From a plasmid: a DNA stretch of 64,000 nucleotides. The stretch lies in the NCBI RefSeq assembly GCF_053078305.1, contig NZ_CP166875.1; one strand, 5' to 3'. The notes below the pieces were generated by a model. It was not told the origin of the DNA. It saw nothing but the letters and a program-made list of their open reading frames with translations, and did no database searches. The translations under genes and the position numbers were made by a program. Positions 4,965 to 64,000 of this stretch are shown piece after piece. Each line of letters starts with the position of its first letter. Position 1 is the first letter of the stretch.

Positions 4965-7900
4965 ATGAAGTCCAGATATCGTACCTGGCTTGCTGTCCCG
5001 CCTGAGGAGACAGAAGCCGTAAAAAATGCAGTCCCCCCGTTAAATGGCCGCAAAGCTGTCGCATGGGATCCAGAAAAAAAACTCTGGTATGCCCGGGCGG
5101 GTACCGAACTTTCACTGCTGGAGCGCTGGTTACCCCGGCCGCAGGAACTGTCGATGGATGCCGGCGATCCGGTCACCGAATTTGCTCAGGTCCTGGAAAA
5201 CGCCGGACTGGTTATTCAGGGATTGCCACAGATGGATGGCGCCATACACAGAGTCGCCACCCGGGATGACAAAAAAGGGGCCAAAAGTGGCGCATACAAG
5301 GCCTATCTTGATGGGCGCCCCGCCGGCTGGTACCGCGACTACCGGAGCGCCGATGACAGTCCCACAAACTGGGTATTTTCCGGCGGAGAACAACACGATC
5401 CTCTGGCCAGACTGCATCTGCGGGCATTCGCTCAGCAACAGCGCGATGATAACGCACGTAAACTGCAGCAACAGTACAACAAACAGGCCCGGTATGCCCG
5501 CTCCTATATTAACCAGTTACCACAGGCAACAGAGCATGAATACCTGACCCGAAAAGGGATCCTTGCCGCACCGGGCGTCCGTCTGAATAACAAGAATGAA
5601 CTCGTCATCCCTTTCAGTAACAGCCGGGGAGAAATACGTTCATACCAGCGTATTCCTGTCACCGGCGGGAAGGATGCCCGCATTCTGAAAGACTCAGAGA
5701 AAACCGGTAACTGGTTCACCTTCGGAACCCCGGAAAATGGCCGTCCCCTGTTATTTGCGGAAGGTTACGCAACTGCAGCCTCCCTGCACGAAGCCACCGG
5801 CCTTCCGGTTCTGATGACAGTTGATGCCGGCAATATGATTGACGTGGCAGAAAATGCCCGCCAAATCTGGACTGACAGCCCCTTTGTCTTCTGTGCCGAC
5901 AACGACCATCAACGGAAAATTAACAAAGGTGTTTCAAGTGCCCAAAAAGCTGCCGCAAGCACGCATGGCGAAGTCATTATTCCGGCCTTTACGGAGGCGG
6001 AAAAAGCACAGGGACTGACCGATTTCAATGACCTGGACGCCAGCAGGGGACGAGACGCCTTTCAGCGAGCCATGAACGCACAGTTAGAATATATCGGTAT
6101 CCCCACGCCCAACAATGACACTACTGACCGCCGTGAAGCTATCGTGATCGGCAACCTGATATTCACACCGGTAAAAGATGAGAAGCCACAAGTGTACCCT
6201 GAAAACAGACAGAGCACAGCCCCTGAACCGGCAGTGTCGGAACAGAATCATCCTTATGACATCCCTGCAGAAGAGACAGACAATCAGGCATATGAAGATG
6301 ACTATGCAGCATATGCATCCCTGCAGTCGGTAACTGCAGGGACAGCCTCCCCGAATGAACCGCAGGTGAATGCTGTTTCTGCCATTGACAGCAACGCAAA
6401 GAATACCTCTGCCGCCACCACTGACGACCGAAATGTATTAGCACAAGAACCCAATGCTGACGCCACAGTTACGACCACGGCTCACGACACCGGCACAGCA
6501 GAAACAGATTCACCTTCTGAACCTGCAGAGATTCAGCCAGTGCAGCAGGCCAGTCCTGAACCATCGGCTAAAGATAAACCACAGGAGAACGTAGTGTCTG
6601 CTACTGATAATGACGCAGAGAACACCTCTTCCGCCACCACTGCCCTCCGGAGTTACGACACACCGGAAACATCCGTCTCCGACGCAACCGGGACACAGCA
6701 CACCGCCACAACGCAACCTGAAGAACCACAGCAGGTCTCCATGGGCAGCGCTGACGACTGGAGCGCATTTGCGGAAGACCTCAATGCTGATGCTCCGGGG
6801 AATGCCACTGTTCACAGCACCGACAACGCGGAGACAAAGACACTTTCTGAACCTGCCGGGATGCAGCCTGTTCAACAGGCAACCCCTGAACCAACGGAAG
6901 AAAATAAACCTCAGGAAGAGGGCGTTATGTCTGCCACTGATACAGGTGAAGAGAGTGCCGCTGCCGCTATCGATGACGACCTGGACACAGTTGCGGAAGA
7001 CCTCAATGCTGATGTTACTGTGATGACCACAGCTCACCACACCGATACAGCAGAAACAGCCTCACCTTCTGAACCTGCAGAAATTCAGCCCGTACAGCAG
7101 GCAACCCCTGAACCAACGGCAGAAGATAAACCGAAGGAAGAGCGTCCAGTGTCTGCCACTGAGACCAGCACAGCGAATGAAACAGCCCGCCCTGAAACAG
7201 CATCGCTTTTCAGCCGCCTGCGCCGTTTTCTGACCGGTGGAAAATCACGTACCGCCGAACCTCCCGTTATTCAGGAGAACAAGCTTACGGAGGCCGAAAC
7301 TGCGACAGAGGCCGCAGCACCACCGTCACCACCTGAAACCAGCCCGGAAGACACATCGTCAGCAGAACCGGACACGATTATCTTTGCGCCCCGCCGGCCC
7401 AACAGTCCGCAGCGGCACAACCTGGACGAGATTATTAAAAATCTTACATACGATGAGTTACCCGACAATACTGCGCTCTGCCGCGTCGACGGCGAACCGG
7501 CATTCCTGGATAAACTCAACCGTCTGGAAATGGTGGATGGTGCCAGCACTGATGACAAAAAGGTCCTGGCTGCCCTTGCTGTGGCCACCAACTTCTATGG
7601 CGGCGTTATCGAGCTGACCGGCAGTGATGCCTTTAAACAAAAAGCCATGCAGCTGATTGTCGAATATGACATCAAGGTTCGCATGAAACTCCCGGTCCAG
7701 AGGGCTGCGCTGGAAAAACTCCGCCAGGAGAAAGGGATGGCGCATGATGCCATCGTCACCCACAGACCCACGCCGGAACTCAACCGCCTGTCACCGGAAG
7801 AGACAACAATGGCACAACCGGCCCCCCCTGTGTCACCGAAAGCAGAAACAGAGCAAACTGCAGGCAGTACGGCTGAAACACCGCATCCGGAAGCGCCGGT

Positions 7901-9359: not shown

Positions 9360-10055
9360 ATGAGCGAAGCACACCCCACATCCCCTGTCTCTCCGGAAAC
9401 AGATAACAGCGGAGATATTTATAAACAAACGCTCAGTACCATTGCACAGTCAGAACAACGGGCCGCACTGGTTCCCGGACTTGTCAGGGCCTTGCTGTGT
9501 AGCAGCGCAGCTCTCGTCATCAGTCTGACCGGCAATATCATACAGTACTGGCATAACAGCAACGTAACGCGTGAATACTTTGCCACCGACAATGGCCGGC
9601 TGGTCCGCCTGGCCCCCACCAGTCAGCCAGCCTGGAGTCAGAGCGACGTCATGACGTTTGGCAGCATGACGCTGAGCGAAGCTTTTAATCTGGATTTTGT
9701 CCACTACAGGAAACAAATCACGACACTGGCCCCCCGCTTTTCCGAAGCCGGTTTTGCCGGCTATGTGAATGCTCTTCAGGCCTCCAACATTCTGGACACC
9801 ATTAAAAAGGAGAAATTTAACCTCACGGCCACCATCGGGGCCGGCACGCTGGTGAATCAGGGCCAGATGGAAAACGGCATCTGGTTCTGGAAATTCCAGT
9901 ATCCGGTCAGGATGCGTCTGGTCGGTCAGAGCAGCACCCGCCCCGAGCAGGCCTTCACCTTTGAAATCACTGTCCGGCGCGTTGACCCACGAATCAAACC
10001 CGGCGGCATGGAAATCAGCCAGATGGTTTCCCGTAACGCCGCATCAGGAACCTGA
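9360..10055 (+). CDS. T4SS inner-membrane protein, IcmL/DotI family (TraM-like)
   Basis: SD AGGAG before ATG; single N-terminal TM segment then periplasmic domain; size and order match. Confidence 0.5.
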   Translation: MSEAHPTSPVSPETDNSGDIYKQTLSTIAQSEQRAALVPGLVRALLCSSAALVISLTGNIIQYWHNSNVTREYFATDNGRLVRLAPTSQPAWSQSDVMTFGSMTLSEAFNLDFVHYRKQITTLAPRFSEAGFAGYVNALQASNILDTIKKEKFNLTATIGAGTLVNQGQMENGIWFWKFQYPVRMRLVGQSSTRPEQAFTFEITVRRVDPRIKPGGMEISQMVSRNAASGT

Positions 10056-30045: not shown

Positions 30046-30385
30046 TTATTTGCTGATATGAAGAAAAAAACCATTTCAAAGAAAATAAATGGCAAAAATA
30101 CAGCATGGAAAAAAATTGCCATTTTTACCGCCGCGTTATTTTTAATATTTGCTGTCTGCTGGTCGTAATAAGCAGAATAACAGAAAGGTGTAAAAATGAA
30201 CCTGGTTGATGCATTTGTCACTAAAGTGATATCCGGACCGTATGAAGAATACGGAAAATGGTGGGTGGATGTAGAATATATTTCCTGGGGAGTTCCGGGT
30301 AAAAGCCGGCTCATGTTTGACTCACGGGAACAGGCACAGGAAGTGCAGGAAGGTTTTCGATTTTTAACCTGAGCATATTTTGTTA

Positions 30386-30415
30386 AAGGGCAGAAGGCGG
30401 TGACCCTCTGCCCTT
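30386..30415. terminator. hairpin after toxin copy 1 (bidirectional)
   Basis: Perfect 9-bp inverted repeat AAGGGCAGA ... TCTGCCCTT. Confidence 0.4.
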
Positions 30416-30434
30416 AAGTACGTTTCCGGGATTA

Positions 30435-30530
30435 TCAGTCAACCAGTTCCCGGATCAGTTCCAGGAGAGCTATCACTGCGTTAGCCACAGCAACAACCGC
30501 CCTGAGAACGATGATTAACAGGTTAATCAT
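30435..30530 (-). CDS. DinQ/TisB-like small hydrophobic toxin peptide, copy 1 (31 aa)
   Basis: Encodes MINLLIIVLRAVVAVANAVIALLELIRELVD; GGAG 8 nt before ATG; the IALLELIR core matches DinQ as I recall it. Confidence 0.4.
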   Translation of the reverse strand: MINLLIIVLRAVVAVANAVIALLELIRELVD

Positions 30531-30845
30531 CCGCTTCTCCATCAATGGAGAAAGAACACCGTGGTTTGCCCTTACATTGCCTGTCGCCACGTTTTCTATA
30601 GTGTCAGTTATAGACAGTTCTTCTCCGGCCAGAGCACCAAAACCAGCACCACCTGATGTTTTGGCCAGGACTTGCAACCTGTTCATCCCGGTGAACGATA
30701 TGCCGGAAAGAACGTGCCTCAAAGCTGACACACCGAGTATATACTTATACTGTGCTTGCAGAAATATTATTTCAGCCGTATTATTTCATAGTCAGTTATA
30801 GGCAGTTATCTTCCGGTCAGGGCTACCAACTTCGATCCGGAATCG

Positions 30846-30876
30846 CAAAAAAACCGGCCTCACCAGTCGGTTTTTT
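30846..30876 (+). terminator. A-tract / hairpin / T-tract terminator, possible 3' end of an antisense sRNA
   Basis: AAAAAAACCG-loop-CGGTTTTTTT; sits at the far end of the toxin leader. Confidence 0.4.
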
Positions 30877-31077
30877 TGCGTCTGTACCTCCTCCCCGGAC
30901 AGCAGTTCTCTCACTCCCGTTGAATATTTCCTGTTGAATTTTACGAAAATACGGCAAATGGGAGATATCGAATATATTTCCTTGGGTGTAGTCGGTAAAA
31001 ACCAGCTCATGTTTGACTCACAGAAACAGGCTCTGGAAGTACAGAAAGTAATCTGTCCGTAGATTATTAAAGGGCAG

Positions 31078-31107
31078 AGGGCGGTGACCCTCTGCCCTTA
31101 AGTACGT
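31078..31107. terminator. hairpin after toxin copy 2
   Basis: Same 9-bp inverted repeat as at 30386. Confidence 0.4.
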
Positions 31108-31118
31108 TTCCGGGATTA

Positions 31119-31214
31119 TCAGTCAACCAGTTCCCGGATCAGTTCCAGGAGAGCTATCACTGCGTTAGCCACAGCAACAACCGCCCTGAGAACGATGATT
31201 AACAGGTTAATCAT
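31119..31214 (-). CDS. DinQ/TisB-like small hydrophobic toxin peptide, copy 2
   Basis: Identical 31-aa peptide and GGAG site to copy 1. Confidence 0.4.
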   Translation of the reverse strand: MINLLIIVLRAVVAVANAVIALLELIRELVD

Positions 31215-31575
31215 CCGTTTCTCCATCAATGGAGGAAATCACTGTTGTTTACTCTTACATTGCCTGTCACAACAGCTCTTTCATTGTTAGCTGAAAAGAG
31301 ACTTCCTCCGGCCAGAGCACCAGACGCAGCACCACCTGTTTGTCCGGCCAGGTCTTTGAATAGCACAGATCCATAGTCCCGATGGATTGATGCGAAGGTA
31401 AGTCTCCAGACAAGGCTAACTTGCTGATTATACTTGTTTCAGGCGATATCGCTACTCCCGGAACAATAGACTGTAACGAACAGATTGCGATCAGGTGAAT
31501 ATAACGATATTCTGGTAACGTTAGTTGAAAAGAGACTTCCCCCGGGCCAGAGCCACCCACTCTCCCTGGGATCGC

Positions 31576-41269: not shown

Positions 41270-41660
41270 CATCGTCACGACTGCCGGGTCAGCCAGGTCA
41301 TTTCCCGGAGGAGCGAAGCTCCTTCTGCCGTCCGGGTCTTCGGGGATTTCCCCGCAGTGGACCTTTCCGATGGGGGCCCGTTTACCGCCTCACGGGACAG
41401 CTGTCCGGGGGCGGACGCAAAATTTTTAGCCGGGTTCATGGCTAAAAATTTTGTGGCCGGTGCATCTCACCCTGGACAGATGGAACGGGAGGGGGTTACG
41501 TCTGCCCCCTGGAAAGTCCACAGCGGGAAACAGGCCGCAGGGGTGGCGGCAGGAGGGAAGACTGCTGCGCCATCAGGCGCAGTTTCCTCACACACCGTCA
41601 GGTGTGCAGGGAGCGCAGGTCACGGCGCGACTGAAGAAAAACGACGGCACAACAATGGCA
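41270..41660 (-). promoter_or_regulatory. repeated hairpin element, family A copy 1 (Frpo/ssi-like ssDNA promoter candidate)
   Basis: Shares blocks with 44690-45070 and 60050-60420; contains perfect hairpin AAAATTTTTAGCC / GGCTAAAAATTTT. Confidence 0.4.
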
Positions 41661-44689: not shown

Positions 44690-45070
44690 GGGCCGACCGA
44701 TTGCTCCCCCGGAGGGGCGAAAGCCCCTTCTGCCGTCCACTTCTTCGGGGTTTCTCCCCGCAGTGGACCTTTCCGATGGGGCAGCGACAGCCACGGCACG
44801 GGGCAGTTGTCCGGGGGCAGACGCAAAAGTTTTTGACGCTTGCGGCAAAAAGTTTTGTGGCTGGTACATCTCCCCCCTGGACGGCTGACACGTGTTGTGG
44901 CCGCTTCAGCCCCCGGAAAGTCCACAGCGGGAAACAGGCCGCAGGGGTGGCGGCGGAAGGGCAGACAACTGCGCCATCAGGCGCAGTTTCCTTACACACC
45001 GTCAGGTGTGCAGGGAGCGCAGGTCACGGCGCGACAGAGGCGGCGCGACCGGAACGGTCGCTGCAAGCCT
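44690..45070 (-). promoter_or_regulatory. repeated hairpin element, family A copy 2
   Basis: Same ordered blocks as copy 1; hairpin CAAAAGTTTTTG / CAAAAAGTTTTG with TTGACG in the stem. Confidence 0.4.
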
Positions 45071-45889: not shown

Positions 45890-46302
45890 TCCCGAATCCT
45901 CCATAGTCACATGTTCTGCGACACCGGGCGGTGCCGTGCCTCCATCTTTGCCGGGCCTGCAGGGATGCAAGGGCGCAAGGAAAGCCGCAGCCCGACGCGC
46001 ACGGCTGACGGGAGTTGGAGGGTGAGACCGCGAAATCTGAGCGGGTGAACGACCGGAAAATCACGGCAGACGGGAAGGAGGGACCGGGTGACCGCAGCGG
46101 TTCATCTTACCTTGCAACCCGCCCGCAGAAGCCCGGCTACGATGGAGGCACGGCACAGCCCGCACACGACGCTGAGGCCACATAACTGAAAACCCACAAG
46201 GCCATGCCCCGCATGGCCGGGTAAAGCGGAGCCTGCGGCGACATCCTTTTGCTCTTTCCGGGGACCGGCTGGAAAAGGCGGAGATTTTCCCCGCCAGCGT
46301 CA

Positions 46303-47073
46303 TCATTTCCGGATTTTCGCCAGTGCATCCGCCATGCTGCGGATTTCAGTCCGGGCTTCCAGGACCACCTCCCGCAGAATATCCCGGTCAAACCAGCGAC
46401 GGGACGGTTCATCAGGTATACGCAGCACATCGCAGGCCAGCCCACTGGACAGGATATGCTCCACACACTCACTGACCAGATACATTTCCACCGACGAAAA
46501 ACGAGCGCCCCGGTTCAGGATGGCATCGAGCACCACGGGCAGGTTTTCGTCGTCTTCATCGAGCCAGCAGGGGTGATCGCTTTCCTTCACAACCAGACGA
46601 AAGCGGCGCGTCTGGCGGGTCAGCAACGTCTGACCGGTGGTAGTCAACGCCGCACGGATACGCCGCGCATCTTCTGCCACCCGGCAACTGACACTGCATA
46701 CTGCATCGCGCACCGCATCAAGAACTGCCCTGATTTCGTCTTCGGTCAGCCATTCTCCGGCATACGGGAAAGACACCTGCGTTCCGTCTGCCGGAAGTAC
46801 CGGCAGCGACTGCCACTGACTGCCGGACAGAACAAGTTCCGCCCCGGTTCCGGTCAGTTTCTGAATGGCAGAGGCCAGGAGCGGCGGCAGTACGCCGCCG
46901 TGACGGTTGATAAGTAACGTCGCCAGCCGGGGCGCATCCAGCCGCACGTAAATGCTGATCCAGCCCGGATACTTCGGGTTCCGCTGGTCAACATCCGTTT
47001 CTTCCGGCCAGCCCTGCGCCAGCAACAGGTTGCTGGCGTGGCGATAAATCAGTGCATTCAGCGTTTCATTCAT
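46303..47073 (-). CDS. hypothetical leading-region protein (256 aa)
   Basis: SD GGGAG before ATG; same strand as ardA. Confidence 0.5.
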
Positions 47074-47117: not shown

Positions 47118-47552
47118 TCAGTCGTTTTCGTGTGTGTTGTTTTTCAGCAGGGTGCGGGCCTGATTAACCACCTCCTGACGGCGGGTGACGCATTCCGGGA
47201 CGGCGAGGCCATGATCCCGGGCGGCCCATTCACGTTTCCACAATGCCTGCTCAGCGGTCTGAATCAGGGACGCCAGCAGTTCAGCAGGGACGGTCACCTG
47301 GCGGTTTTCGCTCACGTTATTGATGATCTCCATCACCGCAGCGGAAGAAATACCGGACTCAATCCGCTGTTCTTCCGGGATGTCCTCCAGGCGTGCCAGG
47401 ACGGTCCTGATTTCATGACCGGTCAGAGAAATTTCCATACCGTCAGCCAGTGCCTGAATCTCTTCCGGGGACCAGACAACCAGCATCAGCGGCGTGTTCT
47501 CCGTATACTGCGCTGCCAGCTCACGGCAGAGCGTTTCGCATGTTCCGTACAT
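47118..47552 (-). CDS. hypothetical leading-region protein (144 aa)
   Basis: SD AAGGAGA before ATG 47552. Confidence 0.45.
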   Translation of the reverse strand: MYGTCETLCRELAAQYTENTPLMLVVWSPEEIQALADGMEISLTGHEIRTVLARLEDIPEEQRIESGISSAAVMEIINNVSENRQVTVPAELLASLIQTAEQALWKREWAARDHGLAVPECVTRRQEVVNQARTLLKNNTHEND

Positions 47553-47565
47553 TCTCGTCTCCTTC

Positions 47566-47787
47566 TCAATCTTTAAAGCACGCATCCAGTTCCAGAATTT
47601 CGGTATATGCCTCCATCAGGAGGCGGTTTGCGCGAAACAACGTCTGACGCACCAGACGTTCCGGCAGGGTGTCAGCATTAAAGCTGTACCGCCGCTCCAT
47701 CTCATTCATGGTTGTACGCAGGTCGCACATGGCATTGGCCACATCCGCCACTTCGGCGCGAAGTTTTTCGTGTCCGGCATAGTTCAT
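47566..47787 (-). CDS. hypothetical small protein (73 aa)
   Basis: SD GGAGG before ATG; start overlaps the methyltransferase stop. Confidence 0.4.
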   Translation of the reverse strand: MNYAGHEKLRAEVADVANAMCDLRTTMNEMERRYSFNADTLPERLVRQTLFRANRLLMEAYTEILELDACFKD

Positions 47788-48471
47788 TTACGCAGCCTCC
47801 GGCATAAACCAGTCATCATTCGCGGCCCCCTGCTGCATGGCCCGTTGTACGGCGGCAAGGCGTTGCTGCCCGGCACGGTGATACTGCTCAAGCAGCTCGA
47901 TACCGATATACCGGCGTCCGGACTGGAAGGCGGCCACGCAGGTTGAGCCGCTGCCTGCAAACGGGTCCAGCACAATTGCGTTCGGGTGTGTGAAGCTCTC
48001 AATCAGCGGTTGCAGGCTGGTAACGGGCTTTTCCGTCGGGTGATGACGATTGCCTGAATATTTCCAGCCCAGCACGTCCGGCAGCGGGTTTTGTGGCAGA
48101 CGTGGACGGCCTTTTGCCAGGATGTAGGCACATTCGTGGCGATAGCCCACATATGCGGCCTTCGATGTGTAGTTTTTGGTGAAGACCAGGTGACCAACAA
48201 CGCTGAATCCCGCATTTTTCCAGGCAGACATAAAACGATCGACGCGATTCCAGCCATAGAAGCTCACCATTAACGCGTCTTTTTTGAGTACGCGGTACAT
48301 CTCATTACAGGCCGGTTGCAGCCATTCATCGGTTTTATCGCCGGCAATGGTACGCCCCTGACGGTCACGAAAACCGACGAGGTACGGCGGGTCGGTGAGG
48401 ATGAAATCAATGGCGTTATCAGGGATACGGGCCATAACATCGATGCAGTTACCGAGGACAAAACGGGACAT
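47788..48471 (-). CDS. orphan DNA methyltransferase (N6-adenine/N4-cytosine class, DPPY motif)
   Basis: Motif IV FILTDPPYL; C-terminal AdoMet-binding segment VLDPFAGSGSTCVAA; SD GAAGGAG; no adjacent restriction enzyme gene. Confidence 0.7.
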   Translation of the reverse strand: MSRFVLGNCIDVMARIPDNAIDFILTDPPYLVGFRDRQGRTIAGDKTDEWLQPACNEMYRVLKKDALMVSFYGWNRVDRFMSAWKNAGFSVVGHLVFTKNYTSKAAYVGYRHECAYILAKGRPRLPQNPLPDVLGWKYSGNRHHPTEKPVTSLQPLIESFTHPNAIVLDPFAGSGSTCVAAFQSGRRYIGIELLEQYHRAGQQRLAAVQRAMQQGAANDDWFMPEAA

Positions 48472-48485
48472 ACCAAACTCCTTCT

Positions 48486-48830
48486 CTTACAGAGGGCACC
48501 GGGAGGGCCCCCCTGTGGTGCCCGTTCCCCGCTGCCTGTGGGCTGTTCACCGCGTCCGGTAACGGGTCAGGCCGACCGTGGAATACCGCAGCCGTCGTCT
48601 TTTTGACGGCAAGGTTATGCCGCGAAAGCGGCTTGAAGGGCGTTCATCAGAAAAGGGCGACGGGCTGGCGTACACTGTCACCGGTGCCAGCCGGGAGCGG
48701 TAAAAGCGCCCGTCCCGTGCCCGGCCGGACGCGGGACACTGACCACAGGCAGCGTTTATGCCGCGCCGCGTCAGCCGGCGCAGTAAAAAGAGGAGCACGG
48801 CGACATCCTTTGTCGGAAAAGAAACGGGCG
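48486..48830 (-). promoter_or_regulatory. long imperfect-hairpin element, family B copy 1 (Frpo/ssi-like ssDNA promoter candidate)
   Basis: Near-identical to 49800-50115; distal arms complementary (CGCTGCCTGTGG ... CCACAGGCAGCG); contains TTGACGG. Confidence 0.45.
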
Positions 48831-48855
48831 GTTGCCCGCCCGTCTCCGTCATACT

Positions 48856-49782
48856 TCATCCGCCATAATGCGCCACCTTGTCGACTATCCACGCAGGTCC
48901 GGTGACTTCCGGCAGCTCATCGTCATCTGTCGGGGAAGACCATTCCAGTTCCCCCCACAGCACATCAACGAGCTCTCCGCGCTCATACAACTGCCAGCCA
49001 CAGAAATTGCAGCCCTGTTCGGCGTACCAGTGCTCCAGCGTGCAGCCGAAACGGCGGCTTAATTCTGCAACAACGTCGCTTTCCGGCTGACACCACGGCG
49101 TGTCGAAATCTACCTGAATGAAGTTTTCCCCCTGACTGCTGATATTCAGGTCATACCCACAAGGCCACTTCACGCCATACCGTTCTGTATACCAGTGATA
49201 TGCAGAAGGAACACCGTTCAGAACACCGCCGTTAAAGCCATTCACTTCAATATCCAGGCGGGTCGGCAAAACCGTCAGCAGGTCAAACGGCATGGTTTTT
49301 TCCGGCAGTACGTTGTCACACAGACGGTTCCACCACACCGATACATCCTCGTTACCCCAGATGTCACACCAGTCACCTCTTTTTGCGGTGAAATGCACAG
49401 TGATAGTTTCCCTGACATCATCCGGTAACTCTTCCCAGCGACGCTGTCCAGTACCGCTCTGCAGCCAGAGTTCATGCAGCATCAGGCAGTTTTGCTCATC
49501 CAGCAGTACACCGTTCTGCAGGTGTGTCAGCCAGCGGGTGAACGCGATATTTTCCGGTGATACAGCACCACGTCCGGCAGCCGTCACTCCGGGGCACTGC
49601 TCAGAGCGGATATTTTCAGTGATCTGCAGAAGTCCGGCACTTCCGGCCAGAAACAGCTGAATACCTTCATTTGTGGCGCGGCGATAAAACGGTGTGACTG
49701 CACCGCTGGCCAGTCGTTTAATCTCAGCAATCTGTGCCGGTTCACCAGAAAAATACATACGATTCGAGCACCAGTTTGGCAT
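48856..49782 (-). CDS. hypothetical leading-region protein (308 aa), Trp/Cys-rich
   Basis: SD GAGGAG before ATG 49782; directly downstream of element B2. Confidence 0.5.
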   Translation of the reverse strand: MPNWCSNRMYFSGEPAQIAEIKRLASGAVTPFYRRATNEGIQLFLAGSAGLLQITENIRSEQCPGVTAAGRGAVSPENIAFTRWLTHLQNGVLLDEQNCLMLHELWLQSGTGQRRWEELPDDVRETITVHFTAKRGDWCDIWGNEDVSVWWNRLCDNVLPEKTMPFDLLTVLPTRLDIEVNGFNGGVLNGVPSAYHWYTERYGVKWPCGYDLNISSQGENFIQVDFDTPWCQPESDVVAELSRRFGCTLEHWYAEQGCNFCGWQLYERGELVDVLWGELEWSSPTDDDELPEVTGPAWIVDKVAHYGG

Positions 49783-49799
49783 GGGAATTCTCCTCACAG

Positions 49800-50115
49800 G
49801 AGCACCGGGAGGGAGCCCCTGTGGCGCCCGTTCCCCGCTGCCTGTGGGCTGTTCACCGCGTCCGGTAACGGGTCAGGCCGACCGTGGAATACCGCAGCCG
49901 TCGTCTGTTTGACGGCAAGGTTATGCCGCGAAAGCGGCTTGAAGGGCGTTCATCAGAAAAGGGCGACGGGCTGGCGTACACTATCACCGACGCCAGCCGG
50001 GAGCGGTAAAAGCGCCCGTCCCGTGCCCGCCGGACGCGGGACACTGACCACAGGCAGCGTTTATGCCGCGCCGCGTCAGCCGGCGCAGTAAAAAGAGGAG
50101 CACGGCGACATCCTT
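49800..50115 (-). promoter_or_regulatory. long imperfect-hairpin element, family B copy 2
   Basis: About 97% identical by eye to copy 1 over roughly 310 bp. Confidence 0.45.
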
Positions 50116-50159
50116 TTCCCCTGAACATCCGTCAGCCTTTCTCTGCGGCAAGATCAATC

Positions 50160-50385
50160 CTTAACAGAAAAAAAACCAACAAGCACCCACATAAAAAACA
50201 AAAAACCCAAGCAACACCCACACAAACAAAAAAAACACCCAGAAAACACCCAAAGACAAACAACAATAAAGTAATGAAACCCATAAAACACCCAAAAAAA
50301 GACAAAAAAGATTAAATAGCACTTGAACGCCACCAAAAAAATACTATTATGGGTATAGACACCCAAACGACACCCAAAAGAGGAT
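50160..50385 (+). repeat. parC-like centromere: A/C-rich iterons (ACACCCA and variants)
   Basis: At least 8 direct copies of (A)ACACCCA in a C/A-rich tract directly upstream of the ParM-like gene. Confidence 0.45.
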
Positions 50386-50388
50386 TTT

Positions 50389-51360
50389 ATGATTAAGATA
50401 TTCTGTGATGATGGTTCTACAGCGGTTAAGCTGGCATGGTTTGAAAACGGGGAACTAAAAACCCTCATTAGTCACAATTCTTTCAAGGAAGGCTGGAACA
50501 CATCAGGATTTGGCAGTGAGAAAACTTATAATTACTTAGTCGATGGAGAGAAATATGCGTTTGATACACATAACCCATCAGCAATAGTCACAACCAATAT
50601 TGAGTTTCAATATAGTGTAGAAAATCGTCTCGCTGTACATCACGCACTACTACAAACAGGAATGGAGCCTGGGGATGTAGAGCTTTGGGTTACATTACCT
50701 GTATCTGAATATTTCACTACAGATATGCAAGAGAATTCGGATAACATAAGAAAAAAAATAGAAAACCTGAAAAAAGAAATTACACTGAATAAAGGCAGCG
50801 TATTTTCAATCAAGAAAGTTCATGTATTACCCGAGTCTCTACCTGCAGCGTTGACCTCTCTCGAAGAGGATAAAGTCAGTGATCTTGAAACGTCCCTTGT
50901 CGTCGATCTTGGTGGAACAACTCTTGATTGTGGCGCTATAGCTGGCAGATATAAAAATGTAACACAAGTATCCGGAGAACCTGGTCTTGGCGTAACTCTG
51001 GTAACAACGGCGACAATGAATGCCCTGAAACAGGCAGGAACGCATACCAGCTACTATATTGCAGATCAACTGGTTAGAAACAGAAATGCTGATGATTTAT
51101 TCGAAATTGTTGTTAATGACAGCAGTAAAATAGATGATGTGAAATCAGTAATTGAAAACAGTATTACAAGACTTTCAGACAGAGTTATAAATCATTTACA
51201 CTCGTACAAAGGGATAAATCGTATATACATGACTGGTGGTGGTGCGGAACTAATCTACCCTGCAATAAAAAAAGCATTCCCCTTATTAAAGGATAAAGTA
51301 AAAATTTTACCAGATGCGCAATTAGCCCTTGTTATTTCTATTGCTGAAATAAATCGATAA
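50389..51360 (+). CDS. parM: actin-like plasmid segregation ATPase (ParM/StbA family)
   Basis: N-terminal IFCDDGSTAVKLAW and phosphate-2 motif VVDLGGTTLD; overall resemblance to R1 ParM; 323 aa. Confidence 0.75.
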   Translation: MIKIFCDDGSTAVKLAWFENGELKTLISHNSFKEGWNTSGFGSEKTYNYLVDGEKYAFDTHNPSAIVTTNIEFQYSVENRLAVHHALLQTGMEPGDVELWVTLPVSEYFTTDMQENSDNIRKKIENLKKEITLNKGSVFSIKKVHVLPESLPAALTSLEEDKVSDLETSLVVDLGGTTLDCGAIAGRYKNVTQVSGEPGLGVTLVTTATMNALKQAGTHTSYYIADQLVRNRNADDLFEIVVNDSSKIDDVKSVIENSITRLSDRVINHLHSYKGINRIYMTGGGAELIYPAIKKAFPLLKDKVKILPDAQLALVISIAEINR

Positions 51361-59964: not shown

Positions 59965-60049
59965 CTTTAATACACCTCTGTTTTTTGCCCCCATCATCTG
60001 TTGAGTTTCGGGAGCCGCGGTTTTGACGTTTTGCGGGGACCTGCCTTTT

Positions 60050-60420
60050 GTTCCCTCCGGTATTCACCATCACCTGTTTGAGAACCTTCGCCGCAAGGGG
60101 CATCACTGCCACGGCCGGAAACGACTGTCCGGGGGCAGACCGCAAAAGTTTTTGCCTGCTTTTGGGCAAAAAGTTTTGCGGGATGTGCATTTCACCCCTG
60201 GACTGGCGGAGACGGTTGTGGCTGTCTTTGCCCCCGGCGACAGGGGCTTAAACAGGTGTATGGCACCGGACACAACAACGGGCAGGGACCCGCCGCAACG
60301 ACGAAGAGCGCGTGCGCGAAACGGCGTTGCCCCTTACATCCCGGCGGCCTTTTGCCGGGATGCCAGGAGCGCAGGCCACGGCGCGACAGAGGCGGCGCGA
60401 CCGGAACGGTCGCTGCAAGC
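60050..60420 (-). promoter_or_regulatory. repeated hairpin element, family A copy 3
   Basis: Shares the CAAAAGTTTTTG hairpin and the 60-bp block CGCAGG(T/C)CACGGCGCGACAGAGGCGGCGCGACCGGAACGGTCGCTGCAAGCC with copy 2. Confidence 0.4.
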
Positions 60421-60856
60421 CCGGGGTTTCGCGTCAGGGATGGAAGCCCGCCAGGGCGGAGACAGCTTCGCTGGCTCCGTTCACGACAGCCCGCCCCGCC
60501 TGGGGGACGCCCGGAAAAGGCATAAGCAGGAGAACAACAAAACAGACAATAATCAGGGCAGCAGTAATCAGAGTCAGAACAGGAGGAAAAAGAGAATAAT
60601 CAAAGGGAAGGTGATGTGATTTCCGACAGGTCATAAACAGAGAAGGCGGGGGAAAAGAACGGGCGCCGCAGGCGCGCGTTCATCCCCGTTCCCGGAGGGA
60701 ATCGGCCTTCCTGGCAGTCTGGTTGTTCATGCTGCTGCAATGTCAGCAAGGAGAAAGGGGCCACCGGCGAACCAGCAGCCCCTTTATAAAGGCGCTTCAG
60801 TGCAGTCAGACCAGCATCAGCCCTGAAAAGGCGGGCCTGCGCCCGCCTCCAGGTTG

Positions 60857-61015
60857 CTACTTACCGGATTCGTAAGCCATGAAAGCCGCCACCTCCCTGT
60901 ATCCGTCTCTGTAACGAATCTCGCACAGCGATTTTCGTGTCAGATAAGTAAATATCAACAGTGTGAGACACACAATCAACACACACCAGACAAGAGAGCT
61001 GCGTGGTAGTTTCAT
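60857..61015 (-). CDS. hok: Hok/Gef-family type I toxin
   Basis: Encodes [52 protein letters not shown]. Confidence 0.8.
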
Positions 61016-61072
61016 GGCCTTCTTCTCCTTGCGCAAAGCGCGGTAAGAGGCTATCCTGATGTTGTCAGACAT
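60857..61072 (-). CDS. mok-like overlapping leader frame
   Basis: In-frame upstream extension ([19 protein letters not shown]-) of hok, as in hok/mok/sok loci. Confidence 0.4.
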
Positions 61073-61289
61073 ATGGGATGCCTCGTGGGTTAATGAAAAA
61101 TTAACTACGGGGCTATCTTCTTTCTGCCACACAACACGGTAACAAACCACCTTCACGTCATGAGGCAGAAAGCCTCAAGCGCCGGGCACATCATAGCCCA
61201 TATACCTGCACGCTGACCACACTCACTTTTCCTGAAAATAACCCGCTCATTCAGGCTGTTTACGGGTAATCTGTGTGATTGTTGCCGCA

Positions 61290-62009
61290 TCACGCCGCCT
61301 CCCGGAGTTTGTTCGGCACCATCCACCGCTCCATCTCACGGACAGCGTGACCCGCCTCCCTTGCTGCCATACCTGCCTCTGCGATGACCTGCCAGAATGG
61401 CATATCCTGCCACTGCCAGCGTTCCATCCCGGCCAGTGACGGAAAACGCTCACCCCACTGCCAGAACAGGGTTTCCAGGTCATGCTCTGCCACCCGGTCA
61501 CTCCAGCGTGCATACCAGCTTCCGACTGTTTCCGGTGAATGGAACGCCAGTTCGATTTCAGCCTGAGCGACCAGCGTCTGGTACGCACGGGCTTTCTGCT
61601 CTGCCTCCCGTGCCTGCTGGCGGCTGTACTTCTGCATGACCAGCACGGATTTATGGCGACTGCGTTCCCTGACACGGAACCGCACCGACGGGAACAACCG
61701 CTCTGCTGCATCACCGGGAAGGGGAAGGAGGCAGACCTCGCCCTGTGTTTCAATCAGCACATCGACGGCATACAGCCACTGAGAACGGTTGCCGCGCAGT
61801 TCTTCTGCGGTCAGGGACGGCATGAAAAATCGCAGGTCAGACAGCGAAATCCTGCGGCTTCCGTTCAGACAGCGGAAAAACGCCCCCGCATACGGATATT
61901 CCGCCAGCGTGTTACCCTGGTGGCGGCGTTTTTCTGTCTCCGCCACCGCCCGCCATGCGGCCTGTTGCTCTGTGCTGAGAGGAACCAGTGCCTGTGAACG
62001 TGCGCTCAT
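61290..62009 (-). CDS. psiA: plasmid SOS-inhibition protein PsiA
   Basis: 239 aa starting [22 protein letters not shown]; coupled downstream of psiB. Confidence 0.8.
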
Positions 62010-62440
62010 GCCTGACCTCCTTCCGCCATCAGGATATGGATGATGTCACTGACGCTGTATCCCTGTTCATCCAGTGATGCCGCCAGTGCCAGTGAATGGC
62101 TGACAGCTTCCGGTGCAAACCGCCGCTGCACCTGAACCACCGCAAACGGCTCACCACCGGCATTCACCAGAACCAGCACCCAGACCTGAGAGACATCGCC
62201 CGGTGAACATAACGCCAGGTGAAAACGTTCGTGGGCAGGCGTGAAACGGACCTGGACGGGGAAAAAGCCGCCGAACTCGCTGCCGTACTCGCCATTCATC
62301 GTCCAGTTGTCCGGCGCATCCAGTTCCCGCATCACGGCGTGTGTCAGCTCACGGCGTTCATCACTTCCGGCAGCCCGGATATCTTCATATTCCTGTGCGC
62401 TCATGGTCTGTAATACATTCAGGGTCAGTTCAGTTTTCAT
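62006..62440 (-). CDS. psiB: plasmid SOS-inhibition protein PsiB
   Basis: [41 protein letters not shown]... recognised as PsiB. Confidence 0.9.
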
Positions 62441-62494
62441 CACGGTATCTCCCTTGCTGCCGCCCCGTCTCCGGCGGGGCGGTGTGGTTGTTCA

Positions 62495-64000
62495 TCAGGC
62501 GGCATCAGCCAGGTTATCGGCGCGTTCAGTGGCATCCGTCTGTGGACGTGGTGAACCCATCCAGCCAGGCACCCAGCGGTTGTCTTTCATGTGGAACTCT
62601 GCATGTTCAGCGGCATCGCCTTTCTTCATCTTCTCCGCGTCCCGTGCGGCACCGGACAGTCCGGCATCATTCAGGGCATCGATAATCTGCGGCTTTTTCA
62701 GGTGACCGAAGAAGTTTGCTTTTGTCGGCTGCCACCAGTCACGCATGTGAAAGCCGATGGCGCTCTCCAGCGAGTCCAGCGGACTGCGTGACGTGTGACC
62801 ATACTCGCGGGTCTGAACGCCGTGGATGCTGCACGCGGTGCAGAAACTGAGCAGTGATAACAGCACGTCCTGGCTGAGTGACAGGAACGTCGTCATGTCC
62901 CGTGCCCATCCCTCCGGTAACAGGGCAGCAAGACGGGCTTTTTCTGCCATCATCGCCATGAATGCGGCACCGTCCTTCCCCGATGGCGCATCGCTGGTCA
63001 GCGAATAATGTTTACATTCCAGGCTGATTTGTGCTGGTTTACTGTACGCTCCGCTGCCAAACACATTCAGGCAGAGCGTCCATGCCAGCAGTGCCAGAGA
63101 TTTGTCCGGTTGCTGCATGAGTGCCGCCTGGACTGCCAGCGTGCGTTCGGAAGACATTTTCGTCAGCAGTGGCAGACTGATTTCCTCCACTGACGCTTTC
63201 TCCTGCACCTGTTCCGTGCGGTCAGCGTCGTCAGTCACGTCATCTTCACTGCGCAACTGCACACCACGCTGGACACACACATTACCGTAACGCCAGGACA
63301 CCACCACGCCACTTCCGGCACGCATCTCCGGCGTCCACGCCCTGACCTTCGCCATGCAGTCAATCAGCTTCATTTCTGCTGCCAGCAGGTCAGATTCCTC
63401 ACACTGGTTTTCCAGCGCGTCGTAACGCATCATCAGTTCGTTCAGGCGTTCTTCTTCTGCCTCCGTCAGCACCGCTTCCGGCTCCGGCAGGTTGCGGTAT
63501 GCCCGGGAATCTTCACGGCACTCACCGACAGGCTCCATGCGTCCGGCGCACCATTCCCAGCCTTCGGCTTCCCGAAGGTGTTCAGCGACAGCCTGGAGTT
63601 TTTCCAGCAGGGCGGCATCGAGCGCCACGCAGTCCACATAGCCACCCTCGTCATCGCTGAACAAATCAGTACGCAGTTCGTCAGGTGAGAAAGCATCAGC
63701 CCCCACGAAGCGGAATTTAGTGTTGTCCTTCACCGCCACTTCACTTTCCGTAATCAGATTGCGGATAACCCGCACATCCGGTTTACCGCCCCATCCTGAC
63801 TGGCAGGCCGCTTCAAACACCTGCACCTGACGCGCGGTGTCGTTCTCCAGCGCCAGCGCCTGACAGTGCTCGGTGGTGATGCGGTCTTCTGCCAGCGCAT
63901 CGAGGATGACAGGCGCAAGGTCTGCCAGTTTCAGCATTCGCTGAACGTGGCGGGGCGAATAACCCAGCAAATCACCGATTTGTGCAGGTGTTTTGCCTTC
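62495..64000 (-). CDS. ParB-like nuclease-domain protein of the leading region, 5'-truncated by window end
   Basis: Frame stays open to the window edge; N-terminal visible part has ParB-type HTH (IGDLLGYSPRHVQRMLKL). Confidence 0.55.
   Translation of the reverse strand, partial: EGKTPAQIGDLLGYSPRHVQRMLKLADLAPVILDALAEDRITTEHCQALALENDTARQVQVFEAACQSGWGGKPDVRVIRNLITESEVAVKDNTKFRFVGADAFSPDELRTDLFSDDEGGYVDCVALDAALLEKLQAVAEHLREAEGWEWCAGRMEPVGECREDSRAYRNLPEPEAVLTEAEEERLNELMMRYDALENQCEESDLLAAEMKLIDCMAKVRAWTPEMRAGSGVVVSWRYGNVCVQRGVQLRSEDDVTDDADRTEQVQEKASVEEISLPLLTKMSSERTLAVQAALMQQPDKSLALLAWTLCLNVFGSGAYSKPAQISLECKHYSLTSDAPSGKDGAAFMAMMAEKARLAALLPEGWARDMTTFLSLSQDVLLSLLSFCTACSIHGVQTREYGHTSRSPLDSLESAIGFHMRDWWQPTKANFFGHLKKPQIIDALNDAGLSGAARDAEKMKKGDAAEHAEFHMKDNRWVPGWMGSPRPQTDATERADNLADAA

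Follow-up and report, generated by a model that had tools for sequence, protein, structure and literature searches.

Two near-identical repeats of about 330 base pairs (bp) occur within a conjugative plasmid's leading region, within a stretch of 64,000 nucleotides (nt) (contig NZ_CP166875.1 of assembly GCF_053078305.1; hereafter the window). We consider it very probable that both repeats are class-3 promoters, that is, promoters active as single-stranded DNA (ssDNA), with the first (copy 1) driving an operon of a DNA methylase, a YubE-like protein and a DUF1380 protein, the second (copy 2) driving a DUF1281 gene, and expression being early and transient in both cases. This reading was reached because the repeats are homologous to a validated element, are oriented with the transferred strand (T-strand), have a conserved, covarying fold selected on the DNA strand, and lack a canonical double-strand promoter. 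The element itself is already published, as class 3 of the plasmid pESBL and probably as ssp3 of F. In the course of events that we propose, the window + strand would enter the recipient 5′-first from the origin of transfer (oriT, at ~39.8 kb), and each 330-nt unit, while single-stranded, would fold into a Y-shaped structure, the pseudo-duplex of which would be taken as a promoter by the sigma-70 RNA polymerase of the host. The T-strand would then be transcribed leftwards, towards oriT, out through the base of the hairpin, from copy 1 into the methylase-YubE-DUF1380 operon and from copy 2 into DUF1281. Synthesis of the complementary strand would remove the hairpin and leave no ordinary promoter behind, so that expression would be confined to an early and transient phase. 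The general mechanism was drawn from the literature on the pESBL and F homologues, specifically zygotic induction, a mapped start and the replacement of another ssDNA promoter; the geometry that we give below is our own.

The two copies shared 96.4% identity over 331 nt with a single 1-nt indel by BLAST, a result with which a pairwise alignment concurred, and the repeat finder paired 48496-48723 with 49802-50029 at 97% and 48721-48811 with 50026-50116 at 99%. Each contained 30-nt arms that were 83% complementary and ~165 nt apart (48530-48559 with 48725-48754, and 49836-49865 with 50030-50059), with complementary segments that included CGCTGCCTGTGG...CCACAGGCAGCG and CGCGTCCGG...CCGGACGCG. Differences between the copies were all in loops or bulges, or else improved pairing, as in helix P7 (see below), where T·G was changed to T-A and G·T to G-C. 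Folded as ssDNA, the + strand of copy 1 (345 nt) reached -94.1 kcal/mol (z score -4.2) and that of copy 2 (344 nt) reached -92.3 kcal/mol (z score -4.5), both being beyond the threshold of Wen et al. for large stem-loops (below -75 kcal/mol per 300-nt window, DNA parameters). The minus strand, at -89.9 kcal/mol (z score -4.0), was close to the + strand, and fold energy therefore cannot single out the relevant strand. An earlier, sequence-only reading of this DNA had described a near-identical pair with distant complementary arms, placed directly upstream, on the template strand, of genes with strong ribosome-binding sites, and had suggested folding both strands; these observations were all borne out, and the folds were stable. 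Copies with at least 95% identity were carried by more than 5000 PLSDB plasmids, a recurrence well past anything that chance would give.

The family assignment connects the repeats to experimental work. In pESBL, donor elimination, RNA-seq and 5′ rapid amplification of cDNA ends (5′-RACE) exposed six zygotically induced operons, each behind a large ssDNA hairpin (Wen et al. NAR 2025, PMC12672017). Three of these hairpins were ssi1-3 (class 1), two were located 5′ of ardA and klcA (class 2), and one, 5′ of M.EcoGIX, was the class-3 hairpin, for which zygotic induction was established by RNA-seq and the start site by 5′-RACE (PMC12672017). Classes 2 and 3 are conserved in F (PMC12672017), where class-3 induction was shown by RNA-seq. 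Our alignment of both window copies with the pESBL element (L004:4390-4790, between DUF1281 and the methylase) and the F element (L002:8770-9175, upstream of the F methylase), termed A2, had a mean column identity of 93%, and BLAST core identity to the pESBL and F elements was 96-98% (97.6% for copy 1 against L004:4442-4732). Moreover, both copies were positioned as class 3 is, in the leading region, on the T-strand and 5′ of genes templated by the T-strand. On account of the class numbering and the conserved position in F, we take the F homologue of class 3 to be the element named ssp3 in a preprint, in which it is described as a promoter without roadblock activity (bioRxiv 10.64898/2026.01.09.698686). 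There, F with ssp3 in place of ssp2 (ssp2::ssp3) showed wild-type-like transfer into EcoGIII recipients and partial rescue in two of four wild strains (bioRxiv 10.64898/2026.01.09.698686). An Frpo-type promoter upstream of ecoGIXM, with expression that depends on the orientation of oriT, had been proposed by Fomenkov et al. (2020), who showed that protection is abolished by inversion of oriT.

The sequence-only reading had also likened the repeats to Frpo/ssi promoters and proposed aligning them to those sequences. As class-1 queries we took the 'known' sequences given by Samuel et al. (2024), five in number and including Frpo/ssiD and ColIb-P9 ssi1-3 (blastn, word size 7, E ≤ 0.01). These matched three other loci in the window, all on the + strand, namely 41306-41633 (ColIb ssi3-like, 96%), 44710-45037 (ColIb Frpo2, 87%) and 59988-60336 (F ssiD/Frpo1-like, 95%), and had no match to 48470-48860 or 49776-50160. 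The three loci are probably what the sequence-only reading had called family A. Membership in class 1 was thus rejected. The functional side of the proposal fared better, being in keeping with the published pESBL element (93-97% identical) and its F counterpart, while kinship in sequence to Frpo/ssi was not found. With its long T-strand hairpin 5′ of early genes, the element works like the class-1 family without being a member of it; the earlier observation is confirmed and its interpretation is essentially right.

The genomic context gave the strand. Genes for nikA (39754-39431) and nikB (39410-36696) were both on the minus strand. From this, oriT is placed near 39.8 kb, the leading region extends rightwards from it, and the window + strand is the T-strand. 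The + strand was the template for ardA (45889-45392), the methylase and DUF1281, and copies 1 and 2 were located about 8.7 and 10 kb from oriT. Copy 1 ended 11 nt from the methylase ATG, with the Shine-Dalgarno (SD) sequence AAGGAG, and copy 2 ended 6 nt from the DUF1281 ATG, with the SD sequence GAGGAG. A consensus scan of the minus strand over 48300-50450 detected no double-strand promoter of sigma-70 type other than that of parM at 50323-50350. Between the DUF1281 stop codon and copy 1 there was a terminator-like hairpin (RNA fold -26.2 kcal/mol, z score -5.6) followed by UUUCUUUU, which separates the two as transcription units; the hairpin was absent from the output of the consensus scan, though legible in the sequence. 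Features of both copies and their flanks are collected in Table 1.

Table 1. Positions in the window of the two class-3 repeats, their structural parts and the flanking features
Feature	Position	Strand	Equivalent in copy 2	Details
Class-3 ssDNA promoter, copy 1	48482..48811	+ (transferred strand)		Proposed leftward transcription into the methylase operon
Class-3 ssDNA promoter, copy 2	49788..50116	+		5′ of DUF1281; last leading-region hairpin before parMR
Main stem, 5′ side (copy 1)	48530..48566	+	49836-49872	P1 48530-48541; bubble CTGTTCA 48543-48549; P2 48550-48559; P3 48562-48566
Main stem, 3′ side (copy 1)	48714..48754	+	50020-50059	P3 48714-48718; P2 48725-48734; GACACT 48735-48740; P1 48743-48754
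Arm A (copy 1)	48567..48636	+	49873-49942	P4 48567-48587 with 48613-48636, invariant GACCGTGGAATA and TATGCCGCGAAAGCGGCTTGA; P5 cap 48588-48612
Arm B (copy 1)	48638..48711	+	49944-50017	P6 48638-48642/48707-48711; P7 48663-48671/48684-48692; 12-nt loop
P0, small hairpin between main stem and SD	48494..48523	minus	49800-49829	Three covarying pairs
DNA methylase, 227 aa, M.EcoGIX orthologue	47788..48471	minus		NCBIfam PRK13699, 500 bits; 94% identical to pESBL M.EcoGIX
YubE-like open reading frame, 3′ of methylase, same strand	47566-47787	minus		Synteny
DUF1380 open reading frame, 3′ of methylase, same strand	47118-47585	minus		Synteny
256-aa open reading frame, 3′ of methylase, same strand	46303-47073	minus		Synteny
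DUF1281 gene, 308 aa	48856..49782	minus		94% identical to pESBL DUF1281 protein; PF06924/PF18406 on homologues
Terminator-like hairpin and U-tract	48814..48843	minus		Between DUF1281 stop codon and copy 1

The structure of the element was derived by comparison. Diverged copies were gathered from database proteins translated from a spurious open reading frame (ORF), by blastn with a diverged copy, and by an exact-motif scan of species-representative genomes, and came from Escherichia, Salmonella (including S. bongori and pSLT-type plasmids), Klebsiella, Raoultella, Citrobacter, Enterobacter, Cedecea, Buttiauxella, Entomohabitans, Hafnia, Edwardsiella and Erwinia. The class-3 family is confined to Enterobacterales; three matches in metagenome-assembled genomes labeled "Clostridiales/Oscillospiraceae" look like mis-binned plasmid contigs. 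Between 19 and 40 homologues entered the comparisons: folding relied on an alignment of 19 T-strand sequences (A3), analyzed with RNAalifold and by pair counting, and hexamers were counted over 38 homologues. A chimera from a read-archive assembly (L008), class 2 in its left half and class 3 in its right, was judged uninformative.

The comparative fold was a Y-shaped three-way junction, in which a main stem (P1, a bubble, P2 and P3) bears arms A and B, and the conserved bubble places CTGTTCA opposite GACACTG. The sequence-only reading had expected a long imperfect stem-loop; a large hairpin-forming unit is indeed present, but its shape is that of the junction rather than a single long stem-loop. 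Among 1271 cells, 97.0% were paired, compared with 91.9±0.4% in shuffles (0/500 reached the observed value) and 35-44% with slid partners, and changes on both sides affected 15 pairs and 86 cells. Compensatory changes occurred in P1 and P2. P1 in particular was found in at least six sequence versions that kept complementarity, among them CTGCCTGTGG/CCACAGGCAG, CCGCACGCTGCC/GGCAGCGGGTGG, CCCGTAGCC/GGCTACGGG and CCCGGAGCC/GGCTCCGGG, with further ones in Hafnia and Erwinia. P7 also covaried, and P5 was formed in 19/19 homologues from differing sequences, such as GCCGTC...GACGGC in the window, CCGAC...GTCGG in Salmonella and GCCGCC...GGCGGC in Raoultella. Helices P1, P2, P3 and P7 are well supported and P4 is probable, confidence being lower for the interior. 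The TTGACGG element to which the sequence-only reading had drawn attention was present in both copies (48604-48610 and 49910-49916), but it was not conserved (the pESBL motif is CTGACGG) and covaried as the 3′ half of P5, so that we rejected it as a -35 box.

The kinds of mismatch tolerated in these helices bear on whether the fold acts as DNA or as RNA. Outside P0, non-Watson-Crick cells on the + strand comprised 66 G·T and 8 A·C. A G·T wobble on the + strand corresponds to a C·A mismatch on the complement and in the mRNA, from which we conclude that the fold was selected on T-strand DNA and not on mRNA. It could be supposed instead that the fold acts in the mRNA as a 5′-leader structure, a riboswitch or an attenuator, given that the minus strand folds nearly as well by the energy and z score above and that P0, beside the ribosome-binding site, looks RNA-selected. 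We regard this as very improbable in view of the wobble counts, and, at Rfam gathering thresholds, no family other than sok was found in 38000-64000. For P0 itself the count was reversed, with 7 A·C and 0 G·T cells in a small sample, and this hairpin probably acts in the mRNA leader.

Covariation speaks likewise to a coding role for the repeats, in which minus-strand ORFs of 101 aa (48547-48852) and 91 aa (49853-50128) would give small proteins, named YfbA/YcdA by some sources. In many plasmids the element is covered by an ORF that RefSeq annotates as a hypothetical protein, and databases list 183 'homologues'. However, the 1-nt indel puts the N-terminal 35-45 residues of the two copies in different frames, leaving a match over the C-terminal 57 aa only; the 'homologues' vary from 55 to 156 aa, are often partial or fused to neighbors, and belong to no Pfam or NCBIfam family; and substitutions over the ORFs follow base-pair covariation. 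We rejected a coding function for want of a single conserved frame, with frame shift, variable length and fusions all telling against one, and give it next to no credence; the two ORFs are almost certainly annotation artefacts.

Returning to the class-3 promoter, we scored all three classes by a single sigma-70 weight matrix and infer from this how polymerase may be accommodated, predicted starts included. In pESBL class 2, the best match was TTGCAT, 15 nt, TAAGAT on the 3′ arm, with the -35 in perfect duplex, positions 2-4 of the -10 unpaired, and then a fully paired 12-bp basal stem. This layout suggests that the 3′ arm is the non-template strand and that polymerase exits via the hairpin base. 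By analogy, the non-template strand of class 3 would also be the 3′ arm, and the -10 would be GACACT (48735-48740 in copy 1, 50040-50045 in copy 2), followed by the 12-bp P1. Variants of this hexamer were GACACT, GATACT, CACACT and CAGACT. Its second base (A) and its sixth (T) did not vary in 38/38 homologues; throughout the 19-sequence alignment, these two bases faced a C and a T that were themselves invariant, and positions 4 and 5 were always paired. In the proposed -10 the two mismatched bases would be A-11 and T-7, exactly those that sigma-70 flips out. No -35 was found 17 nt upstream of GACACT on the same strand. P4 and P3 were, however, joined without a linker on the template side, and an invariant TTGA (48633-48636) closed P4, so a -35 could be composed of TTGA stacked on CC (48714-48715) across the junction, reading TTGA-CC (the hyphen marking the junction). 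The spacer would then be 18-19 nt if counted along the non-template strand and 15 nt along the template, and the pseudo-promoter TTGA-CC...GAyACT scored 5.6-8.1 bits in 19/19 homologues. The predicted starts are near 48537 for copy 1 and near 49843 for copy 2, and the leader, of ~66 nt, would have P0 at its beginning.

Several observations weigh against the class-3 reading or parts of it. Induction and start site are reported for the pESBL and F elements and are predicted for the window element. DUF1281 is not among the six induced pESBL operons (PMC12672017), and its early expression from copy 2, which we hold to be probable, is argued from sequence identity. Natural variants that lack the 3′ arm keep an intact methylase gene in two of three cases. 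Regarding structure, the single-sequence minimum free energy (MFE) fold favors a different interior from that of the comparative fold; the latter was within 1-6 kcal/mol of the MFE under DNA parameters in eight homologues, which speaks for it, and, with so small a gap and the disagreement between them, we dropped the single-sequence MFE as a guide to the interior. P4 is near-invariant, with two covarying pairs only, and a local GCCGC-GAAA-GCGGC mini-hairpin is an alternative to it. In the proposed geometry, the -35 hexamer is interrupted midway by the exit of arm B, which might hinder sigma region 4. Finally, arm B and not the proposed site has the highest-scoring linear match to sigma-70 on the T-strand (CAGAAA/TTAAAA, 15-17 nt, TAnAAT; 4.9-8.8 bits), and the element holds two conserved -10-like hexamers (48735-48740 and 48671-48676) with a -35 that is either split (TTGA-CC) or weak (CAGAAA).

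The arm-B match allows a reading in which this arm is an ordinary double-strand sigma-70 promoter on the + strand, firing rightward, away from the leading genes, once the DNA is double-stranded. No other linear sigma-70 match in the family scores as high (up to 8.8 bits) or is as well conserved, and the arm-B hexamer was TAAAAT, TACACT, TACAAT or CATAAT in most of the 38 homologues. The hexamer starts the 12-nt loop (TACACT at 48671-48676 in copy 1, with the equivalent at 49977-49982 in copy 2), downstream of an A-rich -35-like stretch, with which it would amount to a fair promoter as dsDNA. By a geometric argument, arm B would have no template past its apex as an ssDNA promoter. The 12-nt loop cannot be both non-template -10 and template, and we considered TAnAAT geometrically implausible as a working ssDNA -10. 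Against the double-strand version, the window has a poor -35 (4.9 bits) and no promoter was called here by the consensus scan, the DNA to the right of copy 1 holds merely the 3′ end of DUF1281 in antisense, and the motif is in the loop of a structured hairpin, where its first base is paired and covaries with P7. We therefore judge such a promoter unlikely. The -10 at the 5′ edge of the loop, with its first base paired, has the look of a fork junction, and we think that the hexamer serves another purpose.

The class-3 element might also, or mainly, be an ssi priming signal, in which the hairpin recruits primase or RNA polymerase to make a primer on a T-strand coated with SSB, the protein that binds single-stranded DNA, as described for Frpo and other ssi of F. 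Part of arm A (48613-48642) shared with F ssiE a 29-nt motif, GGTTATGCC(C)GC(G/A)AAAGCGGC(A)T(T/G)GAAGG, in the same T-strand orientation, and the alignment scored 34 against a shuffle maximum of 27 (0/300 shuffles). F ssiE (D90180.1) corresponds to F 65372-65561 (L002 20373-20562) and adjoins oriT. P4 and the GCGAAAGC core were invariant on both strands in all homologues, which suggests recognition by a protein beyond mere pairing. Mini-hairpins of GCGAAAGC occur in the complementary-strand origin of phage G4. According to the literature, transcripts from Frpo serve as primers for DNA synthesis in vitro, and conversion of ssp1 loci is early in vivo. On the other side, the preprint presents ssp3 solely as a promoter, the similarity to ssiE spans 29 nt only, and a literature search on ssiE found nothing relevant, including on its mechanism. 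On balance, priming is a possible though doubtful role, and one that may coexist with the promoter role. A more speculative variant, to which we assign somewhat less likelihood, is that the three-way junction builds a sigma-70 promoter from separate pieces (TTGA-CC, formed where arm A stacks coaxially on the main stem, together with a pre-melted -10) and carries the invariant GCGAAAGC arm and the fork-junction-like TAnAAT loop as recognition modules, perhaps for primase or a second polymerase, making it a combined early promoter and priming device.

Copy 2 requires separate consideration, as its placement before DUF1281 is a minority arrangement. Among the 5000 best PLSDB records, at least 364 had the contiguous DUF1281/class-3 junction, most records having another arrangement; the plasmid pDW54_2 also has both copies. 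In pESBL, the region 5′ of DUF1281 (L004 3250-3470) contained a class-2-like hairpin (TTGCAT, 15 nt, TAACGT, and then a basal stem) that is outside the six reported promoters; beside it is the strong promoter of imp/umu (TTGACT, 18 nt, TAGAAT), accompanied by a sequence resembling a LexA box. Elsewhere, the class-3 unit is usually before the methylase, with a second copy before two small ORFs in pSLT-type and S. bongori plasmids, and several genomes had two copies 0.5-1.7 kb apart.

The copies might be a mere footprint of recombination or of a mobile cassette that shuffles leading-region modules, with no promoter role for copy 2. The class-3 unit does precede different genes in different plasmids, another hairpin being before DUF1281 in pESBL. 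Direct repeats inside the element (GCCAGCCGGGAGCGGTAAAAG at 48686-48706 and GTCAGCCGGCGCAGTAAAAAG at 48771-48791) have recombined, which removed the 3′ arm in three homologues (L009, L010 and L013). Repeated ssDNA promoters do recombine, and the window has no psiAB-ssb-klcA block between class-2 copies of the kind present in pDW54_2 and pESBL. However, copy 2 retains every helix and conserved motif, with changes limited to those noted above; it is at the same distance from SD and ATG; its arrangement is fixed in the at least 364 plasmids; and the ssp2::ssp3 replacement, which restored transfer wholly in EcoGIII recipients and partly in two of four wild strains, indicates that the unit works at a new site. 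We find a footprint without function highly unlikely, and a recombination substrate and a promoter are not mutually exclusive.

Regarding this missing block, the window had a single class-2 promoter, 5′ of ardA (45897-46248), which matched both class-2 copies of pDW54_2 and pESBL (L001 2464-2815 / 9411-9762), and was without the ~6.6-kb psiA-psiB-parB-ssb-klcA block that lies between those copies. It looks as if repeated ssDNA promoters had recombined and the block had thereby been deleted. Class-2 and class-3 units also had a distal boundary motif in common, (G)GCGACATCCTT, at 46236-46249, 48798-48811 and 50103-50116, and class-1 units ended with a similar GGCGCGACAG (45030-45040 and 60380-60390); the common motif may be a module boundary.

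Beyond copy 2 was the parMR partition module, with parM at 50389-51360. Iterons of ~31 nt, rich in ACACCCA, were located 5′ of parM (50166-50384), where they overlap the parM promoter, and have the look of a parC-type centromere. An F-like leading-region segment (59976-64000; 96% identical to F) lay past the partition and uvrD-like genes, which indicates that the plasmid is a mosaic; overall, the window is a mosaic IncI/K-type conjugative plasmid. This segment contained an Frpo1-like element, the sok antitoxin RNA (61013-61184; Rfam, 87 bits) and psiB (62440-62009). A PLSDB search for a plasmid collinear over 39000-63000 gave none above 60% coverage. Other long direct repeats were at 6355-7138 (209-nt units, 64-76% identity) and at 30268-31356, adjoining trbA (85-189-nt units, 72-95% identity).

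Promoters of this kind determine the set of plasmid genes expressed during the first minutes that follow conjugative entry, when restriction systems cannot yet act, and thereby help resistance plasmids to establish in new hosts. The window shows class 3 in a two-copy arrangement, and copy 2 probably places DUF1281, a widespread gene of unknown function, under early expression, making it a candidate establishment or anti-defence factor. To the published element we add the family assignment, the correction regarding TTGACGG, the covariation-backed three-way junction, evidence for selection on the T-strand, a testable geometry and the minority arrangement of copy 2 with DUF1281. The fold, the test for the strand of selection and the predicted starts provide concrete handles on the recognition rules of class 3. 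As substrates for recombination, the repeats also reshape leading regions, an example being the apparent class-2-mediated deletion in the same window.

Known systems with which the element can be compared include the minus-strand origin of the filamentous phages f1/M13. Like the split -35 and -10 that we propose over stacked helices, it is a promoter mimic made of adjacent hairpins, which sigma-70 RNA polymerase reportedly recognises in SSB-coated ssDNA, as Higashitani et al. are said to have found in 1997; unlike class 3, it makes a short primer and not an mRNA, and no sequence relation is known. F ssiE resembles class 3 in the motif around the GC(G/A)AAAGC mini-hairpin and in its orientation, but the remainder of its 190 nt is unrelated and AT-rich. 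Class 1 (Frpo1/ssiD and Frpo2 of F; ssi1-3 of ColIb-P9) likewise consists of T-strand hairpin units of ~330 nt, 5′ of early genes, that are active as ssDNA and repeated per plasmid (Masai & Arai 1997; Bates 1999; Couturier 2023). No sequence similarity to class 3 was detected, however, and the best promoter match of F ssiD is on the 5′ arm (TTGAGA, 17 nt, CATACT), whereas that of class 3 would be on the 3′ arm of a three-way junction.

Class 2 (5′ of ardA/klcA in pESBL; ssp2 of F) shares the predicted layout of class 3, with a -35 duplex on the 3′ arm, a -10 in a mismatch bubble and a 12-bp basal stem as exit, in addition to the shared distal motif GCGACATCCTT. It differs in having no overall sequence similarity to class 3, in the contiguity of its -35, and in acting as a replication roadblock in F, which ssp3 is reported not to do. 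The closest counterpart is class 3 of pESBL, where the element is likewise 5′ of the orthologous methylase, on the same strand relative to oriT and with the same YubE and DUF1380 genes downstream, as is copy 1. In comparison with both pESBL and F, the window has an extra copy before DUF1281, at a position where pESBL has its class-2-like hairpin and F retains a DUF1281 remnant.

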